Source of the DNA: an uncultured Methanosarcinales archaeon
Lineage (GTDB): Archaea > Nanobdellota > Nanobdellia > Woesearchaeales > UBA12501
Reading direction: 5' to 3'
Length of the DNA stretch: 32,130 nt
Assembly (NCBI GenBank): GCA_964397315.1
Contig: CAYNHV010000017.1
Span: 1 to 32,130 of the forward strand
Both the position numbers and the translations under genes were made by a program. Each line of letters begins with the position of its first letter. Position 1 is the stretch's first letter. The notes under the pieces are model-generated. The model did no database searches, had not been told where the DNA came from, and saw only the letters and a list, made by a program, of their open reading frames with translations. This document shows, in pieces, positions 1,656 to 26,272 of the stretch.

Positions 1656-3362
1656 TCACATCCTCTCAAGGTATTCAATACCAAGAAGGTCCAGGCTGTT
1701 GGCAATAACCTGCTTTACTCCCTTCAGCAGGAAAAGCCTTGCCTTTTTCGTCTTCTCATCCTTTATGCTGAGCACAGGCACGCTCTGGTAGAATGTGTTG
1801 AATGCCTGGCAGAGTCTTATGAGATAGTTGGCCAAAACATGGGGCCTCATCTGCTCTGCTGACTCTCTTATTATATGGGGGAAGTCGTAGAGAAGCCTTA
1901 TGAGGATCTCCTCGCTCTCGTGCTTCAGCAGCCTGCAGTCAGCTCTTGAGCCTGTCCTCTTTCCGTGCTTTCTCAGTATGGAGCATGTCCTCGCGTAGGT
2001 GTACTGCACGTAAGGCCCGGTCTCGCCCTCAAAGCTTATTGACTCCTCAGGGTTGTAGGTCATGTCCTTGGCAATGTCTGTCTTTGCAAAGTGGAACTTC
2101 AGCGCTCCCATGCCTATCACTTTTGCCCTCTTTTTCGCCTCTGCCTTTTTTATCCTGCTGTCCCTCCTGAGTATCTCCTTCTCTGCCACCTTTTCCATCT
2201 CATCTATCATGTCGTCAGCGTCAACAACACTGCCCTCTCTTGATTTCATCCTTCCGTGAGGAAGGTAGACCATGCCGTAGCTGAGGTGCACGAGCTTTCC
2301 CTCTTTCGCCCACTTGTAGCCGAGCATGTCCAGTATCGCGAACAGCTGCCTGAAGTGCATGTTCTGCTCTGAGGCCACAACATAGAGTGACCTGTCCAGC
2401 CTGAAGTCGCTGAACTTCTTCCGGACCAGGTAGATGTCCTGTGTCATGTATATTGAGGTGCCGTCAGGCCTGAGGAGTATCTTTTCAGGAAGGCTGTAGC
2501 TGCTGAGGTCTGCCTTCACCGCCCCGTTCTCCTCTCTGGTGAAAATGCCCTTTTTCAGTCCCCTGAGCACTATGTCCTTTCCCTTGTTGTAGAAATCGCT
2601 CTCATAATAGTGCTTGTCAAAGCTGACCCCCATCCTTTCATATGTCTCTTCAAACCCGTCATACGCCCAGGCGTTCATGAGCTTCCACAGCTCCACTGCC
2701 TCTTTGTCTCCTTTCTCCCATTTTGCCAGCATCTCCTTTGCCTCTTCCTCAAGCTTGGGGTTTTTCCCGGCCTCATGGTTGAACAGCACATAAAAGTCTC
2801 CGACAAAATGGTCAGGCTTTTTCTTTTCCTGCCAGGGCTTCTTTCCCTTCCCGAATTTCCTGTATGCGAGCATTGACTTGCAGATGTGAATGCCCCGGTC
2901 ATTGTTGAGGTTGGCCCTGACAACCCTGTCTCCGAGGAACTTGAGAGTGTTTGACACTGAATCGCCTATCACTATGTTCCTGATGTGGCCCAGGTGCAGG
3001 GGCTTGTTGGTGTTCGGAGAGGGAAACTCCACCATGACCTTCTCCTTCTTTTTCCTTGTCCTTCCGAAACTGCCCTTCTCCTTTGCTATGCCCTTCAGCA
3101 CAGAGTCTGCCATCTTCTGCTTGTTTATGAAGAAGTTGATGTACGCGCCCTTTACCTCAATCCTTGAGACTGGCTGCTTCAGCTCCAGCTTTCTCACAAG
3201 CTCCTGGGCTATCTCCTGAGGGCTTTTCCTGAGCTTCTTTGCAAGAGAGAAGCACGGAAGGGAGTAGTCTCCGAGTTCAGGCTGGGGAGGCGTCTCAATC
3301 ATTGACCCATCTACATCCACCTCTTTCCTCAGAAGATTTATCACCTTTTTCCTGTAATCCAT
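1656..3362 (-). CDS. argS: Arginine--tRNA ligase
   Basis: EFPSPNTNKPLHLGHIRN (HIGH), YVVASEQ, MKSREG (KMSKS equivalent), GETGPYVQYTYAR, C-terminal LERM. Confidence 0.97.
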   Translation of the reverse strand: MDYRKKVINLLRKEVDVDGSMIETPPQPELGDYSLPCFSLAKKLRKSPQEIAQELVRKLELKQPVSRIEVKGAYINFFINKQKMADSVLKGIAKEKGSFGRTRKKKEKVMVEFPSPNTNKPLHLGHIRNIVIGDSVSNTLKFLGDRVVRANLNNDRGIHICKSMLAYRKFGKGKKPWQEKKKPDHFVGDFYVLFNHEAGKNPKLEEEAKEMLAKWEKGDKEAVELWKLMNAWAYDGFEETYERMGVSFDKHYYESDFYNKGKDIVLRGLKKGIFTREENGAVKADLSSYSLPEKILLRPDGTSIYMTQDIYLVRKKFSDFRLDRSLYVVASEQNMHFRQLFAILDMLGYKWAKEGKLVHLSYGMVYLPHGRMKSREGSVVDADDMIDEMEKVAEKEILRRDSRIKKAEAKKRAKVIGMGALKFHFAKTDIAKDMTYNPEESISFEGETGPYVQYTYARTCSILRKHGKRTGSRADCRLLKHESEEILIRLLYDFPHIIRESAEQMRPHVLANYLIRLCQAFNTFYQSVPVLSIKDEKTKKARLFLLKGVKQVIANSLDLLGIEYLERM

Positions 3363-7734: not shown

Positions 7735-9228
7735 TTATTGAACAATGAACCCGTCAATCTCGTCAAGGAACTCCCTGACATACCTCATCTTATACCTGCT
7801 CTCTGCAAAAACAGTGTAGATGACATCCCCCTTCTTCACCATCTCCCCTTTTTTCTTCCACAGCATCACTCCGGCTCCCTTGTCATTTGGGCATCCTGCC
7901 AGCCTTGCGATCCTCGCTATTGAAGTGTTGCTGATGTGCTTCACCCTTCCGCTCTTCTTTGCCTTCACCCTCAACCTCTGCTTTCCAAGCCTTATCTTTC
8001 TCTCATCAAGAGCTCTGGCTCCCTGGGACTTTATTATCTCAACAAACTTCCTGTAAGCCTCTCCTGAATCAAGTGTTTCCCTGGCCTTGCCATAACCCTT
8101 TTCCCTGCCTGCCCTGCCTGTCATCTCAAGCACCCTGCCTGCCATGTCAAGGGATTTCTCCCTGAGGTCTTCAGGAGCCCTCTTGTTGCCCTTCAGCACC
8201 CACAGCACGTCCCTTGCCTCAAGAGCAGGCCCTATGCCGTTTCCAACAGGCTGGGAGCCGTCTGTTATTATCACCTTTACCCTCATCCCCAGCTCTTTCG
8301 CAACCTTTTCAAACTGGCGCTTGAGATGCCTTGCATCTTTCCTTGTGCCAATCTTAGCGTCCTTTCCCACAGGGATGTCTATTATTACGTGCGTGGCTGA
8401 AACAGAGCCTTTTTTTGCCATTATTGACGCGAGAAGCTGGCCTTCAGAGTCAATGCTCAGGGGATGCTCCACATTTATTATTGTGTCATCAGCAGGAGCC
8501 AGGTCAACTGCTCCGCCCCACACCATGCAGGCCCCTGTCTTCTCCACCACCTTTTTTATGTCAGGCAGTGCAAGAGACACGTTTGCCAGCACCTCCATTG
8601 TATCTGCCGTGCCTGCAGGCGATGTTATTGAGCGGGAGCTTGTCTTTGGAACAATGAGGCCAGCTGCCGCGAGTATGGGCACGATGATCATTGTTGTCCT
8701 GTTGCCCGCAACCCCTCCGATGCAGTGCTTGTCTATTATGGTCTTCCTGCCCAGCTTAAGCATGTCTCCAGTGTATATCATTGCCTTTGTGAGGTTCACT
8801 ATCTCCCTCATGCTCATGCCTTTTGTGTAGTTTGCAGCCACGTAGTAGGTGAGCTCTATTGTTGTCACTGCATTGCTGACTGTGTCATCTATTATCCTCT
8901 TTATCTCCCTGTAATTAAGCTCCTTGCCGTCAAGCTTTTTTCTTATGTAGCCTACAGAAGGGGGCTTGCCCTCTATGGAGATGGACGCTTCATCGCCTTC
9001 TTCTGCGCCAAGGCCTGAGAGAACCTCCTCAAAAAGCCCTATGCTTCCGGAAGGCACTGCTTTTTCTGACTCTGCAAAATCAACAACAGCGATAGCCTCC
9101 TTCCTTCCCTTCTTGAGCTTTATCCTGTCAGAAAGATGAAGGTCCAGCATGAGGGCGTCATTCTCGTTCATGACAGCCACAAGAGGGCCTCCTGTTGCAA
9201 CGTCCATGTCCTTTACTTTGAACTTCAC
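7735..9228 (-). CDS. AMP phosphorylase (archaeal thymidine-phosphorylase family)
   Basis: N-terminal extension typical of AMP phosphorylase, DKHCIGGVAGNRTT, PKTSSRSITSPAGTAD, GIGPALEA; 497 aa. Confidence 0.92.
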   Translation of the reverse strand: MKFKVKDMDVATGGPLVAVMNENDALMLDLHLSDRIKLKKGRKEAIAVVDFAESEKAVPSGSIGLFEEVLSGLGAEEGDEASISIEGKPPSVGYIRKKLDGKELNYREIKRIIDDTVSNAVTTIELTYYVAANYTKGMSMREIVNLTKAMIYTGDMLKLGRKTIIDKHCIGGVAGNRTTMIIVPILAAAGLIVPKTSSRSITSPAGTADTMEVLANVSLALPDIKKVVEKTGACMVWGGAVDLAPADDTIINVEHPLSIDSEGQLLASIMAKKGSVSATHVIIDIPVGKDAKIGTRKDARHLKRQFEKVAKELGMRVKVIITDGSQPVGNGIGPALEARDVLWVLKGNKRAPEDLREKSLDMAGRVLEMTGRAGREKGYGKARETLDSGEAYRKFVEIIKSQGARALDERKIRLGKQRLRVKAKKSGRVKHISNTSIARIARLAGCPNDKGAGVMLWKKKGEMVKKGDVIYTVFAESRYKMRYVREFLDEIDGFIVQ

Positions 9229-11710: not shown

Positions 11711-13069
11711 ATGAAAATAGCTGCGATATTTCCCGGAGACCAGACTGAAGACAGCCTGGGAATAGACAACTGTCTTGACCAGCCATTGGGCATAGCTTAT
11801 GTTGCTCAGGCAGCCGAGGATGCAGGCCATGATGTAAAGCTCTACTACAAGGCTCCAAATCTGGAAGAGATCGCAGACAGGGATGCTCTCGCTTTCTCTC
11901 TTCTCACAAGAGACGTACCAGCAGCCAGGAGATTGTCCAGGCTTGTAAAGCAGGAAAAGCCCGAAACCAGGATAATAGGGGGTGGCTCCCATGTATCAAG
12001 CGAGTATGACATTGCCCTGGAGGACTGGATTGATTATGGAGTTATAGGAGAGGGGGATGAAACATTTGTTGAGCTGCTGGAATGCATTGAAAAGAATAAG
12101 AGCATTGAATCTGTCAAAGGGCTGGTTTATTCTGACAAAGGAGAGCTTGTGTCAACAGGCCAAAGACCGAGGCTGGATCCGACAGGCCTGAGGCCGATGA
12201 GGCATCCTGATTTCTTTAGAGTCTTTGGCAATGATTTCTATGGTCCTCCTGCATCAGAGAGAAGATTTATCCCAATTATCACTTCAAGAGGCTGCACTCA
12301 GGGATGCGAGTTCTGCGACAGCGAGATTATATGGGGGAGGCAGGTCAGGTACAGGACAGCAGAGGATGTTGTAGCAGAACTGGAAGAGATAGGCCCTTAT
12401 AAGCATGATTTCATACATATTGATGATGACAACTTATTCCTGAAAAGGAATAATGCAAAGGAAATAATAAAGGGACTGATAGGAAAAGGATATAATATGG
12501 CCACTCAGGCTGATATCCGGCTTACAGACTCAGACCTGTTAGGGTTGATGAAACAGGCAGGGTGGGTAACTTTACTCTGGGGCATGGAATCAGTGAATCA
12601 GGATGTGCTTGATAAGGCCAAAAAAGGCTCAACACAAGAAAAGATTTATCATTTGATGGAGGAATCCGAGAATCTTGGGATAATCAACCATGGACTTAAC
12701 ATGATAGGCTTTGATTATGAGACAGAAGAGAGCATCCTGGAGATGGGAGGTAAACTGAAGGAATATCCTGTGCATCAGCTAAGGCTGACAATAGTGACTC
12801 CATTTGTAGGCACAAACTTCAGAAAGAGGCTGGAGCAGGCAGGCCATTCTTTTGATCCTGACCTCACAAAGTGGGACACAGAGCATCTTGTGTATGACCA
12901 TCCATCAATAAAACCTGAGAGGATGCTTGAATTAAGGCAGAAAATCATAACAGACTTCTACAAAAGCCCACAGTGGGACAAAAGAATACATGACATGGCA
13001 AAGAATAACCCTCATCTAAAGCAGTCAGTTGATGAGTTCAGGGAGTATATATCTTCTCATTTAATGTAA
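11711..13069 (+). CDS. B12-binding-domain radical SAM protein
   Basis: PLGIAYVA, IIGGGSHVS, GEGDET, TSRGCTQGCEFC (CxxxCxxC), DDDNL, GMES, TPFVGT. Confidence 0.92.
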   Translation: MKIAAIFPGDQTEDSLGIDNCLDQPLGIAYVAQAAEDAGHDVKLYYKAPNLEEIADRDALAFSLLTRDVPAARRLSRLVKQEKPETRIIGGGSHVSSEYDIALEDWIDYGVIGEGDETFVELLECIEKNKSIESVKGLVYSDKGELVSTGQRPRLDPTGLRPMRHPDFFRVFGNDFYGPPASERRFIPIITSRGCTQGCEFCDSEIIWGRQVRYRTAEDVVAELEEIGPYKHDFIHIDDDNLFLKRNNAKEIIKGLIGKGYNMATQADIRLTDSDLLGLMKQAGWVTLLWGMESVNQDVLDKAKKGSTQEKIYHLMEESENLGIINHGLNMIGFDYETEESILEMGGKLKEYPVHQLRLTIVTPFVGTNFRKRLEQAGHSFDPDLTKWDTEHLVYDHPSIKPERMLELRQKIITDFYKSPQWDKRIHDMAKNNPHLKQSVDEFREYISSHLM

Positions 13070-13081
13070 AAAGGCAAAAAG

Positions 13082-13214
13082 CCGACTTGTAAGCTTCGTC
13101 TTGTGTGCTGTCAGAAAAATGCATATAAAATCCCGACTCGCTAAAGCTCGTCTGGGATTTTAAAGCATTTAAAAACCAATTATGCCGACTCACTCCGTTC
13201 GTCTGGCATAATTG
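13082..13214. repeat. Cluster of REP-like imperfect hairpins (core CCGAC...GTCTGG)
   Basis: TAAAATCCC-GAC...GTC-T-GGGATTTTA (13126-13162); CAATTATGCC-GAC...GTC-T-GGCATAATTG (13177-13214); degenerate CCGAC...GTCTTG at 13082; related AATCCCGACTCGC at 32084. Confidence 0.7.
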
Positions 13215-13224
13215 CTTTCTTAAA

Positions 13225-13379
13225 TGGGCCCGACCGGACTTTCGCCAGCACAAAATACATACTGCGCTGTTTCGAACCGGTGACCCGCGCCTCGCTCAGC
13301 ATCCCACTCATGATGATGCATGTAAGGGCGCTGTCATGTGCGGTCTCCTCTGCGGAAATAGCCGCTAGACCACGGGCCC
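13225..13379 (-). tRNA. tRNA-Val(UAC) with three introns (13338-13359, 13293-13320, 13239-13270)
   Basis: Minus strand: GGGCCCG/CGGGCCC-A acceptor, D arm GTCTAGCGGCT^ATGAC, anticodon arm GCGCC-CTTACA^A-GGCGC, T arm ACCGG-TTCGAA^T-CCGGT. Each junction forms a bulge-helix-bulge; removing 22+28+32 nt leaves a 73-nt tRNA with no encoded CCA. Confidence 0.93.
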
Positions 13380-13402
13380 GCAATGCAGAAGTAACCAGGT
13401 TC

Positions 13403-13416
13403 ATTTAAAAAGTTTC
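13403..13416 (-). promoter_or_regulatory. BRE/TATA promoter of tRNA-Val
   Basis: Minus strand GAAACTTTTTAAAT about 25-35 nt upstream of tRNA position 1. Confidence 0.55.
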
Positions 13417-13469
13417 TGCTGGAGAGGGGAAAGCTATATATACCTGAATTTCCTGCTCAGACCATATGC

Positions 13470-13811
13470 TTGCAGTCAGAACTGCTGGGGGATGAGCTTT
13501 ACAGCAAGCTTGCGGGAATAGCGGAGCATATGAAGGATAATTTCAGCATTTTTCCCATGCGCTGCTGTGACTACGCTTCTGAGATGGTAAGAAAGGCCAC
13601 CAGCCTTGAGATTGCCTGGGGCTACATCATAAACAAGGACGGAAAGGGAGAGGAGCACTATTGGAACTGCTCTCCTGAGCTGGGGCTGATAGTGGACCTT
13701 ACTGCCAGGCAGTTCTATCCTGAGCTGGACATTGTTCATATACTGTGCGACAACACACCTGAGGCAGAAGAGCTGTACTGCGAGCTGGGAAACACAAGAG
13801 ACATAGTTTAG
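13470..13811 (+). CDS. Hypothetical protein with a transglutaminase/papain-like Cys-His-Asp signature
   Basis: CCDYASEM...GY...EHYWN...IVDLTARQF. Start uncertain (TTG 13470 or ATG 13530); TATA-like CTATATA at about 13434-13440. Confidence 0.65.
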   Translation: MQSELLGDELYSKLAGIAEHMKDNFSIFPMRCCDYASEMVRKATSLEIAWGYIINKDGKGEEHYWNCSPELGLIVDLTARQFYPELDIVHILCDNTPEAEELYCELGNTRDIV

Positions 13812-17180: not shown

Positions 17181-17282
17181 GCTCCACCCCCTTTTATGAG
17201 CAATATAACACCCTTATATATGGTTCTGAGAGTATAAAAAGTTTATGATTAGAATATATGCCCGGCGTGTTTTCATATACCC

Positions 17283-17775
17283 TTCAGGGTTTGCCGCCTC
17301 AAATAGTTTTATGTCAAAAACCACCGGTCAGAGACCGGTGGCATGAAGCGAAAGCTTCATTCTCATTCTTTATTGACCTGTGGTTTTTGAGCATGCTCAG
17401 AAATATACCCTCTGCGGATATGCCTTTGTGGACTTTGTCCACTGGTTAAATAAACCAGTGGTATATTTCTGACATATTAAATGTGGTGCTTTTTCCAGAG
17501 TTTGCCTCCACCCTCCTTGCTTCTACAATCTCTTTTTCCAGCCCTCAGTCCCCCATCAACAGCTTTAGAGCACAAATCCCAGCCTGAGCGCACCTGAGCA
17601 AATTACTGGGCTGGGCTTATTTGAGAGAGTAGAGTGAAGTTGTGCAGTTTCAGAAGGAAAAAACCTGCATGATGGTTGTTGAATAAGGGCGGGAAGAATC
17701 ATGAATTAACTTAATAATCCTCCCACCAAAAGGGCGGGAAGCACCATGAGTTATTAACATTAACCTATCCTCATA
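17283..17775 (+). repeat. Dispersed intergenic repeat family, copy 3 (two units; interrupted by MITE copy B)
   Basis: GTTTGCCGCCTCAA (17289-17302) identical to 13851-13864; core 17494-17700 closely matches 13960-14145; units at 17687 and 17732. Confidence 0.85.
17312..17474. mobile_element. 163-bp non-autonomous palindromic element (MITE/PATE-like), copy B
   Basis: 161/163 identical to 5265-5427, same orientation; both copies followed by TATTAA. Confidence 0.75.
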
Positions 17776-17792
17776 AGCTTTGGAAATTTGCA

Positions 17793-24019: not shown

Positions 24020-24664
24020 TCACCTTATGTCCTCAATGTTGATCATGCTTTTCCTGAAGTCCTCAAATATTCTCGGGCAGGCAGTGTTGACCCAGCACTC
24101 AACAAAAGGGAAGTTATCAAGGTATCCCTCCTGCAGGGTGTTGAACGCAAAAAGATAGAAGTTCTTGTCGCTGTACTTCTTCCTCACCTCTTTGATCCTT
24201 TCCGTGCCTCCCTGCACTCTTGCCTGGCCCTTTTTCACTGAGATCAGGATTCCGATATTGTCTGAGGACAGGAATCTTGAGAGGGCGGCCTTCTTTCTCT
24301 TCTCAATGGCTTCTGCATCCTTTTTTGTCATCTTAACAGCTTTTCCTGTGAAGGGGTTTGCAGCTATGACCTCAATGCCTGTTTTCATCATGACACCCAG
24401 GGGGTGGAACCTTCCGGATCCCACATAGATTATCTTGTCAGTATTGTCCGGCACAGGAGGCACCCTGCAGCCCAGGACCTGTCCGCTTACCACTGCGCTG
24501 ATTTTGTTTTCTTCCAGAAACCTTCTTGCCTCCTCAAGCTTGTGGAGGTGCTGTATTGTGCTCATCAGGGCAGCATTGCCCCCTTCTTTCAGGTGCCTGA
24601 ATGCCTCTCTCATGGCAGGCATGATGTCAGCTTCAGACCTTGCCTCAATATGTATTTTTTTCAT
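24020..24664 (-). CDS. dph2: Diphthamide synthesis protein Dph2, N-terminally shortened
   Basis: STIQH, GQVLGC, YVGSGRFH, SVKKGQ, WVNTACPRI; only 214 aa. Confidence 0.85.
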   Translation of the reverse strand: MKKIHIEARSEADIMPAMREAFRHLKEGGNAALMSTIQHLHKLEEARRFLEENKISAVVSGQVLGCRVPPVPDNTDKIIYVGSGRFHPLGVMMKTGIEVIAANPFTGKAVKMTKKDAEAIEKRKKAALSRFLSSDNIGILISVKKGQARVQGGTERIKEVRKKYSDKNFYLFAFNTLQEGYLDNFPFVECWVNTACPRIFEDFRKSMINIEDIR

Positions 24665-24686
24665 CCTGCTCTCCTCTAACCAGTTG

Positions 24687-25025
24687 TCAGCATGTTCCGT
24701 GCATTATTGCAGCAGCCCTTCTGCCCTCATTCTCAAGCCTGTTATACTCCTGGCATGCCTTTCCTGTGTTCTCAACAATGACCTCAATGCCACTGTCTTT
24801 TATGTACCTCAGCGCTTCTTCAGGCACTTCAAGAGCTCCTGAAGCTCCTTTCCCTATGACAATCACCTCAGGCCCTGCTTCAACAAGCCTTTTCATGTCC
24901 TCCATCTTCAGGGAGTGGCTGTCCCTGCTGTCCCACGTCCCTACTTTGTGGTCTATTATTGTTATGTCATAGGTGTATTCCTTTCCGTCTATGACATATT
25001 TTCCAAATTCATAGTGCTCTATCAT
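24687..25025 (-). CDS. Mth938-like (DUF498/598) protein
   Basis: IEHYEFG..VIDGKEY..D, PEVIVIGKG..G, TGKACQEYN, HGTC terminus. Confidence 0.9.
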   Translation of the reverse strand: MIEHYEFGKYVIDGKEYTYDITIIDHKVGTWDSRDSHSLKMEDMKRLVEAGPEVIVIGKGASGALEVPEEALRYIKDSGIEVIVENTGKACQEYNRLENEGRRAAAIMHGTC

Positions 25026-25141: not shown

Positions 25142-26272
25142 TCAAGCGCCAAGCTTTTCCTGCATCTCAGGCTTCCTGGGTTTTTTCCCTGTCCTGAAAA
25201 GAAGGTAAGCAAGCATGAGTATTATTATGAGCGCGAGCTCTCCAAGCACAATGAGAAGGATTGTCATGTTGTCAATGCTGTCATCCTTTGCAGCTTTCTG
25301 CCCTCCTGAGGGCTTTGCAGGCACGTAACTTATTGAGTCCTGGCTGCTCTCCTTTTCCCTGCTGTCATTGCCTGCCTCCTGGCCTGTCTGGTTAGGCGAT
25401 TCTGTGTCCTGGCCTGAGTCCTGGGACTGCTCATCCTGGGGAGTGAAATCACAGCTCTCAACTGTTATGTTGGTTGTCTTGTGCTGCTTCCTGTAGCCCC
25501 TGTCATACTCAACCCTCACAGTAAGCTCATACATTCCAGGGTTGAGATTCTCCTTGACTGTGAATGGGTAGCTTTTTTCAAAGAGGTTTTCATCATCAAA
25601 ATCCTTGTCCAGATAGAAGAACTCTCTTGCATTGACGCCTATGAGGGTGTTTATTGCTGTCAGGTTTATGTCATCCTCATTGTTTGATCCAATGTTCCTC
25701 ACAGAAACATAAAGCCTTGCGTCGCCGCCGCAGTCAACCTTTTGGGGCTCAAAATGTGTTTTTATCATGAGCTCATGGTTCTCTTTTTCAACCCTGAACT
25801 TTCCGAGCTTCTCCTCAATGGATTCCCTGTTATTGTTTGAGGCGTTCTTTGCTTTTACTTTTACGAATATGTCATACCTCTCCGTGTCTTCCACTTCCCA
25901 GGGTATTTTGAATGTGTATTTTACATTCTTGGAGTCGCCCTCATCAAGGTCACGAAGGTCAAATTCAGGGTTTATATTATCTCCGTTATTGTCCTCAAGC
26001 TTTGAGCCTCCCTCCTCAAACCATAGCTCTGCCTCAACATCCTCAAGGTCGTATGAGCCTGTGTTAACCACGTCAAATTTTACAGTGAGCTCCTCTCCCG
26101 GCTTCACCAGCTCGTCATCCCCCTCTGAGTCAAGGTCAAAGTCCTGTATCTCAAGCCCGGCAATGGCTGTGCCTGCGCACAGCACTAAAAGAACTATTAT
26201 TATAAGCGGCAATACCACTTTTGACCTGCTGGCATATCCTATATAAACCACCCCAGATGGCTTTAAAAGCAT
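25142..26272 (-). CDS. Secreted S-layer/CARDB-like protein with C-terminal membrane anchor
   Basis: Signal peptide, two acidic Ig-like domains (VKPGEELTVKFDVVN; VSVRNIG..PGMYELTVRV), S/Q/D linker, C-terminal TM and basic tail. Start uncertain. Confidence 0.8.
   Translation of the reverse strand: MLLKPSGVVYIGYASRSKVVLPLIIIVLLVLCAGTAIAGLEIQDFDLDSEGDDELVKPGEELTVKFDVVNTGSYDLEDVEAELWFEEGGSKLEDNNGDNINPEFDLRDLDEGDSKNVKYTFKIPWEVEDTERYDIFVKVKAKNASNNNRESIEEKLGKFRVEKENHELMIKTHFEPQKVDCGGDARLYVSVRNIGSNNEDDINLTAINTLIGVNAREFFYLDKDFDDENLFEKSYPFTVKENLNPGMYELTVRVEYDRGYRKQHKTTNITVESCDFTPQDEQSQDSGQDTESPNQTGQEAGNDSREKESSQDSISYVPAKPSGGQKAAKDDSIDNMTILLIVLGELALIIILMLAYLLFRTGKKPRKPEMQEKLGA

Follow-up and report, generated by a model that had tools for sequence, protein, structure and literature searches.

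A predicted tRNA-Val(UAC) gene with three BHB introns in a Woesearchaeota-like archaeon

Can a stretch of archaeal DNA in which routine finders report no tRNA encode a functional tRNA-Val(UAC)? The stretch in question is the 155 nt at 13379-13225 on the minus strand of the window, by which we mean the whole piece of DNA that was analysed (32,130 nt). On the evidence of its sequence, we consider it very probable that this locus gives a functional tRNA-Val(UAC) from a single transcript, belongs to a Woesearchaeota-like (DPANN) archaeon and has three predicted BHB introns, at positions 20a/21, 37/38 and 59/60.

A tRNA gene in four exons

Searches of the unspliced DNA with ARAGORN returned no tRNA from the window or from the local stretch, with or without the intron option, and Rfam gave none either at its gathering threshold or with the cut-off relaxed to E ≤ 10 for 13000-13600 and to E ≤ 1 for the complete window. 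The weak Rfam rows that did appear (SNORA79, LINC00901 and sR4) were at chance level, with E > 1, and were discarded. A preliminary description of this DNA had stated that standard tRNA finders often miss such genes, and the silence of both tools on the unspliced gene agrees with that statement. The gene is therefore a practical case of a blind spot of ARAGORN and Rfam. Because neither ARAGORN nor the Rfam tRNA model responds to it, a genome annotation would seem to be without a decoder of GUA codons.

The interrupted gene extends from G1 at 13379 to the discriminator base A73 at 13225. It opens with a 7-base acceptor strand and closes with the complementary strand and an A. TTT follows A73 directly and CCA is not encoded, so that CCA addition would be post-transcriptional. 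Four exons can be cut from the gene, all on the minus strand. Exon 1 (13360 to 13379, 20 nt, positions 1-20a) contains the 5′ strands of the acceptor and D stems and most of the D-loop, and its sequence recurs unchanged at the 5′ end of many archaeal tRNA-Val genes. Exon 2 (13321 to 13337, 17 nt, positions 21-37) contributes the 3′ strand of the D stem, A26, the 5′ strand of the anticodon stem and the anticodon TAC. Exon 3 (13271 to 13292, 22 nt, positions 38-59) holds the 3′ strand of the anticodon stem, the variable loop, the 5′ strand of the T stem and the T-loop as far as A59, and exon 4 (13225 to 13238, 14 nt, positions 60-73) supplies the remaining T-loop, the 3′ strands of the T and acceptor stems, and A73.

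Joined, the exons give 73 nt, which ARAGORN, run on the spliced sequence, reported as tRNA-Val(tac) with a normal, complete cloverleaf. Twenty of the 21 stem pairs are formed, and the sole exception, U13-U22, is common to most relatives. The spliced product has U8, A14, G18, G19, A21, U33, G53, U54, U55, C56, A58, C61 and A73, all of which we take to be invariant tRNA positions. UAC stands at 34-36, preceded by U33; A35 and C36 are present together with A73, and these three bases are presumably ValRS identity elements.

Three introns and their splice register

Intron 1 (13338 to 13359, minus strand, 22 nt) interrupts the D-loop at 20a/21. Its central helix is GCGG/CCGC, its bulges are CT^A and AC^A, and its intron-internal helix, TTTCC/GGAGA, has 5 bp. 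The exon-side helix h consists of only two pairs in register (A14-U22 and U13-G23), which makes the motif a relaxed one. Intron 2 (13293 to 13320, minus strand, 28 nt) lies at the canonical 37/38 site and is a strict hBHBh′ motif, with the central helix CTTA/TGAG (including one G-U pair), the bulges CA^T and CG^A, the 5-bp internal helix GCATC/GATGC and the 5-bp anticodon stem as helix h. Intron 3 (13239 to 13270, minus strand, 32 nt) interrupts the T-loop at 59/60 and has the central helix TTCG/CGAA and the bulges AA^A and AG^T. Its internal helix, CAGCGCA/TGTGCTG, comprises 7-8 bp and is set off from CGAA by a single unpaired G, and the 5-bp T stem serves as its helix h. All three introns thus have four of four central pairs and 3-nt bulges exactly at the exon boundaries. 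Every helix and bulge quoted in the preliminary description is present; the helices it called 'outer' were right in sequence, although they are the intron-internal helices h′ and were misnamed.

We examined the splice register with our own SPLITS-like solver, which lists candidate introns with both boundaries in 3-nt bulges around a 4-bp helix and keeps those combinations that leave 73 nt, 19 or more of the 21 stem pairs, U33 and a T-loop motif. For the 155-nt gene it found exactly one solution, with introns at 20a/21 (22 nt), 37/38 (28 nt) and 59/60 (32 nt). An intron-aware prediction of this kind had been proposed in the preliminary description, and the single solution fell on the coordinates given there; independent calculations recovered the gene, its three intron sites, the BHB architecture and the anticodon.

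We then asked how often such motifs arise by chance, shuffling each intron in place (n = 20000). Taken singly, introns 1, 2 and 3 formed a four-of-four central helix in 455, 610 and 834 shuffles, and all three central helices occurred together in 1 of the 20000 shuffles. When internal helices as long as those observed were also demanded, the count was 0 of 20000. The three BHB motifs exceed chance.

The cloverleaf and the motifs contribute different things to this result. In a motif-free check, two introns were removed and the third was placed anywhere that kept 20 or more cloverleaf pairs. Introns 1, 2 and 3 could then lie at 12, 5 and 6 neighbouring positions, respectively, and each set included the site proposed above. 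The cloverleaf thus establishes that intervening sequences exist, and the BHB motifs fix the register, because the strict solver accepts just one set of introns across the gene. The same numbers bear on the idea that the locus is a chance resemblance or is built in another way, for example with different splice registers or as one part of a split or permuted tRNA. That the cloverleaf alone permits 5 to 12 neighbouring placements per intervening sequence speaks for another register, but only one register has three motifs accepted by the strict solver, and none of the 20000 shuffles equalled it. A split or permuted gene is contradicted by both acceptor strands lying on one strand, 155 nt apart and in normal order. 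Chance is further opposed by a crude acceptor-plus-T-arm screen of the whole window, in which 20 candidates included one that was tRNA-like, this tRNA-Val(UAC), so that no further hidden tRNA was found in the window. We regard chance or another architecture as extremely improbable, and retain the single transcript with three BHB introns.

The predicted folding of the precursor was less uniform. The three-BHB model had a free energy of -62.5 kcal/mol, or -66.2 kcal/mol with the remaining bases optimised, and the unconstrained minimum was -70.1 kcal/mol. The BHB of intron 3, in the T-loop, belongs to the minimum-free-energy fold and has pair probabilities of 0.82-0.91. The central helices of intron 1 (0.06) and intron 2 (approximately 0.1) had low probabilities, which counts against a functional three-intron gene. 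For intron 1, the competing fold is one in which its 3′ portion pairs with exon bases 8-13. Partly spliced intermediates and a temperature of 60 °C left the helix probabilities of introns 1 and 2 as they were, so that folding gives no indication of the order of splicing. For calibration, we computed central-helix probabilities in relatives, for which the medians were 0.01 at 37/38 (n = 22), 0.40 at 59/60 (n = 8) and 0.55 at 20a/21 (n = 15). A low value is thus normal for 37/38 introns, given the median of 0.01 in 22 relatives, and the 0.06 of intron 1 lies at the low end of the 15 relatives' 20a/21 introns.

This low value, together with the relaxed motif and 2-bp exon-side helix of intron 1, is what would be expected if the locus were a decaying or redundant pseudogene that is not matured, at least at intron 1, with an uninterrupted copy elsewhere doing the work. 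Against decay, the four stems, the invariant bases and the three 4-bp central helices are all intact, and further points against it come from the promoter region and from the relatives described below. Taken together, these make a pseudogene very unlikely.

Expression signals and proposed maturation

The sequence TTTTTAAA (13404 to 13411, minus strand) is a TATA-like box centred approximately 28 nt upstream of G1, where an archaeal TATA box would be expected to lie. It is likely to be the promoter element of the gene, as predicted from sequence and spacing, and its presence at the expected distance argues against a pseudogene.

Downstream, the trailer (13171 to 13214, minus strand) contains a hairpin at 13214-13177 followed by UUUUU at 13175-13171. 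For the 81-nt trailer stretch the folding energy is -25 kcal/mol (z = -4.3), a stability that 0 of 200 shuffles reached. The hairpin with its U run was not among the results of a scan for bacterial-type terminators. It sits between the tRNA gene and a convergent radical-SAM gene that ends at 13069. According to the folding model, the hairpin and its five U residues may act as a two-way transcription stop between these genes.

We propose that the gene would be transcribed from the TATA-like box approximately 28 nt upstream, and that the splicing endonuclease EndA would cut each bulge after its second base in all three motifs. An RtcB-type ligase would then join the four exons, with the introns released, probably as circles, and RNase P and RNase Z would trim the ends. 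Cleavage of both bulges by EndA, ligation of the exons and end trimming follow the archaeal splicing pathway set out in PMC4090602, PMC3239211 and PMC5829648. In the BHB model, G15-G19 pair with intron 1 and U54-G57 pair with intron 3. Because introns 1 and 3 occupy these bases, the D-loop/T-loop elbow would be blocked until both are removed.

The weak exon-side helix of intron 1 suggests that the host EndA is probably tolerant of relaxed motifs at non-canonical sites. Tolerance of this kind is reported for the alpha4 enzymes with an extra 'L3' loop that occur in several DPANN lineages; passages in Kaneta et al. 2018 (PMC5829648) link these enzymes to increased tRNA gene disruption. Alpha4 and alpha2 EndAs are described in part of PMC3239211 as requiring strict motifs. 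A scan of 33 distinct ORFs of the window against Pfam and/or NCBIfam found neither EndA nor RtcB.

Host, relatives and known systems

The host was assigned from a single marker. The best match of the ProRS encoded in the window has 70% identity, and all 25 organism-labelled entries among 120 listed matches were Woesearchaeota (15), Nanoarchaeota (8) or Nanoarchaeia (2). By this ProRS sequence, the host is a Woesearchaeota-like member of the DPANN; the NCBI taxonomy places Woesearchaeota in the kingdom Nanobdellati. Apart from ProRS, the window ORFs include ArgRS, GMP synthase, an AMP-phosphorylase-like protein, a class II ribonucleotide reductase, a diphthamide-synthesis protein, GAPDH and UPP synthase, and the G+C content across the window is approximately 41-51%.

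Several other features of the window were recorded. Approximately 600 bases at 17200-17790 have no ORF longer than 63 aa and no Rfam match, and hold a 17-nt inverted repeat (17314-17330 and 17374-17390) and a 24-nt direct repeat (17685-17708 and 17730-17753). The diphthamide-synthesis ORF (24020-24664, minus strand) is short, with 214 aa covering 65-270 of a 302-position Pfam profile. We considered a split diphthamide synthase with an mRNA intron at 24664-24687 and rejected it, as the upstream ORF (24687-25025) is a complete DUF498 protein. A 376-aa ORF at 25142-26272 (minus strand) matched the NCBIfam entry 'PACE-CTERM-PROT putative S-layer protein' (E 8e-26; 90.8 bits, below the cut-off of 110) and, weakly, CARDB; its product may be a surface protein, as judged from these matches.

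We identified relatives of the gene with a pattern scan of genome contigs that used exon 1 as the query, with Y at positions 16 and 20. The scan gave at least 117 loci (designated by L numbers), and the source genome of the window is not among them. The listed loci contained 118 candidate Val genes, of which 9 run off the contig, 67 are uninterrupted 73-mers and 42 have another length. BHB solvers accounted for 36 of these 42. Six interrupted or odd-length genes were left unsolved by them (L019, L034, L039, L071, L093 and L111); motif-free enumeration succeeded for L019 and L071 and yielded no placement in L034, L039 or L111. A solution for L086_1 at 14/15 and 21/22 was discarded as an artefact that joins two neighbouring genes, the real gene having one 37/38 intron with a 3/4 helix.

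Among the matches listed, the 36 solved genes comprise 22 with one intron, 11 with two and 3 with three, and their intron sites are 37/38 (23), 20a/21 (15), 59/60 (8), 23/24 (4) and 45/46 (3). The three-intron genes, L022 (CAC), L083 (CAC) and L092 (TAC), all have introns at 20a/21, 37/38 and 59/60; L022 is from a Woesearchaeota MAG, and L083 and L092 are labelled 'uncultured Methanosarcinales'. By hand count, 9 of the 22 Woesearchaeota-labelled Val genes among the matches listed are uninterrupted and 13 are interrupted. The closest spliced relatives among these matches, L090 and L004, are uninterrupted tRNA-Val(UAC) genes that are 67/73 identical to the spliced product without gaps, and the stem differences from them, at pairs 27-43, 28-42 and 49-65, are compensatory. 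Such compensatory differences argue against a pseudogene, and the occurrence of the three-site architecture in three other MAGs among the matches listed is hard to reconcile with decay.

Intron sequences behave differently from intron positions. The Val genes L022, L083, L092, L002, L027, L056 and L102 share exon 1 with the present gene and have introns at the same sites, whereas their intron lengths range over 16-130 nt and the sequences are unrelated from locus to locus, save for the bases that the BHB forces to pair with the exon. We also searched for transposition copies of the introns with blastn-short, covering the one window and the Val loci of other genomes (at least 117), and found none; the best matches were 10-12 nt, with E ≥ 0.26. 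Given that same-site introns are unrelated and that the window introns have no copies, it is the positions that recur and not the sequences. One reading of this pattern is that the triple 20a/21, 37/38 and 59/60 is an inherited, selectively maintained state of tRNA-Val, both CAC and UAC, in a Woesearchaeota subclade, in which positions persist, sequences turn over and the elbow stays blocked until splicing. The sample of Val loci is too small and biased to separate inheritance from repeated gain, and we consider this reading unlikely. If it were true, either maturation would have to pass through splicing as a compulsory checkpoint, or the three-site arrangement would deprive integrases of an unbroken target.

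The latter consequence relates to a proposal about why tRNA introns exist. According to the hypothesis of Randau and Soll, as cited in a passage of PMC4033280, introns protect against integration; the preliminary description applied this to the T-loop intron, and interruption of the T-arm and 3′ half would here leave viruses and plasmids without a continuous integrase att site. Besides this published hypothesis, the proposal can draw on the concentration of 59/60 Val introns in Woesearchaeota-labelled MAGs, which account for five of the eight among the matches listed (L002, L022, L056, L102 and L117; the other three have generic labels). However, the 33 scanned window ORFs gave no integrase-like family match, the closest relatives among the matches listed (L090 and L004) are uninterrupted, and a 2026 preprint on Asgard archaea reports that their tRNA introns have no general link to mobile elements. 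Protection is accordingly an unlikely explanation for this gene. Because it concerns why introns persist and not what the locus is, it is compatible with a functional three-intron tRNA-Val(UAC) gene.

Other observations arose from the same loci. In tblastn searches of 13 neighbouring window ORFs against the listed loci, the one strong match was an AMP phosphorylase at L019 (54% identity). In this Woesearchaeota MAG, the AMP-phosphorylase homologue (1277-2743, compared with window 7735-9228) adjoins an interrupted tRNA-Val(UAC) at 3001-3140, which has intervening sequences at 20a/21 and 37/38, with central helices of 3/4 and 2/4, and no T-loop intron. We did not accept L019 as the orthologous locus because orientation and distance differ from the window. 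Five MAGs labelled Thermoplasmata or Methanomassiliicoccales (L047, L079, L088, L097 and L112) have in common a two-intron tRNA-Val(UAC), with 18-20 nt at 20a/21 and 13-14 nt at 37/38; L079 and L112 have the same D-loop intron, from which that of L088 departs by one base, and the intron sequence is thus conserved in that clade. Archaeal-type tRNA-Val genes also occur on contigs of assemblies labelled Deltaproteobacteria (L004), Cloacimonadota (L012, with a 15-nt 37/38 intron) and Anaerovoracaceae (L042). These are probably archaeal contigs binned with bacteria.

A tRNA-Val with three introns in Woesearchaeota had no published description in a narrow search of the open-access literature, and the supplements of PMC5829648 may list Woesearchaeota tRNAs. 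The accessible text of that paper predicts tRNAs from one Woesearchaeota genome and describes published DPANN tRNA sets as incomplete. The present gene adds a clean, fully resolved three-intron example for the DPANN. The three other MAGs with introns at the same sites suggest that a motif-aware census of Woesearchaeota tRNAs would recover many 'missing' tRNAs, and such a census would help to define the substrates of their EndA. The three-intron tRNA-Val gene implies no new mechanism.

The preliminary description held that multi-intron tRNAs and tRNAs with introns at non-canonical sites are known mainly from Thermoproteales and ARMAN-type archaea, and passages in three papers bear this out: tRNAs with as many as three introns are described mainly for Thermoproteales and ARMAN-2 (PMC3239211 and PMC4033280), and 20/21 and 59/60 are among the known non-canonical intron sites (PMC4090602). 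By its ProRS, the present gene belongs to neither group, its lineage being Woesearchaeota-like DPANN. Since these sites and three introns per tRNA have already been published, the gene is of a known kind and only the member is new.

The likeness to Thermoproteales, as described in parts of PMC4033280 and PMC4090602 (citing Sugahara et al. 2008 and Fujishima et al. 2010), extends to the number of BHB introns (up to three), to the combination of 37/38 with non-canonical D-arm and T-arm sites, and to genes missed by simple finders. In contrast, those hosts are Crenarchaeota with an (alpha-beta)2 EndA that has the crenarchaeal loop, and their introns share sequence between tRNAs through transposition, whereas the window introns have no copy in the window or the listed loci. 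Several introns per gene, BHB motifs and D-arm introns missed by a standard annotator are also reported for Asgard tRNAs in the available part of the 2026 preprint, although these belong to another superphylum. ARMAN-2 (Candidatus Micrarchaeum acidiphilum) is, like the present host, a member of the DPANN, and has T-loop introns at 59/60, some of them strict hBHBh′ motifs; passages in PMC3239211 place 59/60 introns in pre-tRNA-Cys and 53/54 and 59/60 introns in pre-tRNA-Pro. It differs in phylum, in the tRNAs concerned and in its epsilon2 EndA, an enzyme that the relevant passages of PMC5829648 report only from ARMAN-1/-2 and the Mancarchaeum group. The pre-tRNA-Glu(UUC) of Methanopyrus kandleri, described in part of PMC5829648, has a relaxed D-loop (HBh′) intron, with the downstream fragment starting at A21, as well as a strict 37/38 intron. 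In vitro, its canonical intron comes out first, and the D-loop HBh′ intron is cut poorly without the specificity loop. This precursor shares with the present gene a relaxed D-loop intron beside a strict canonical one, but it has two introns, is another tRNA and comes from a euryarchaeal host.
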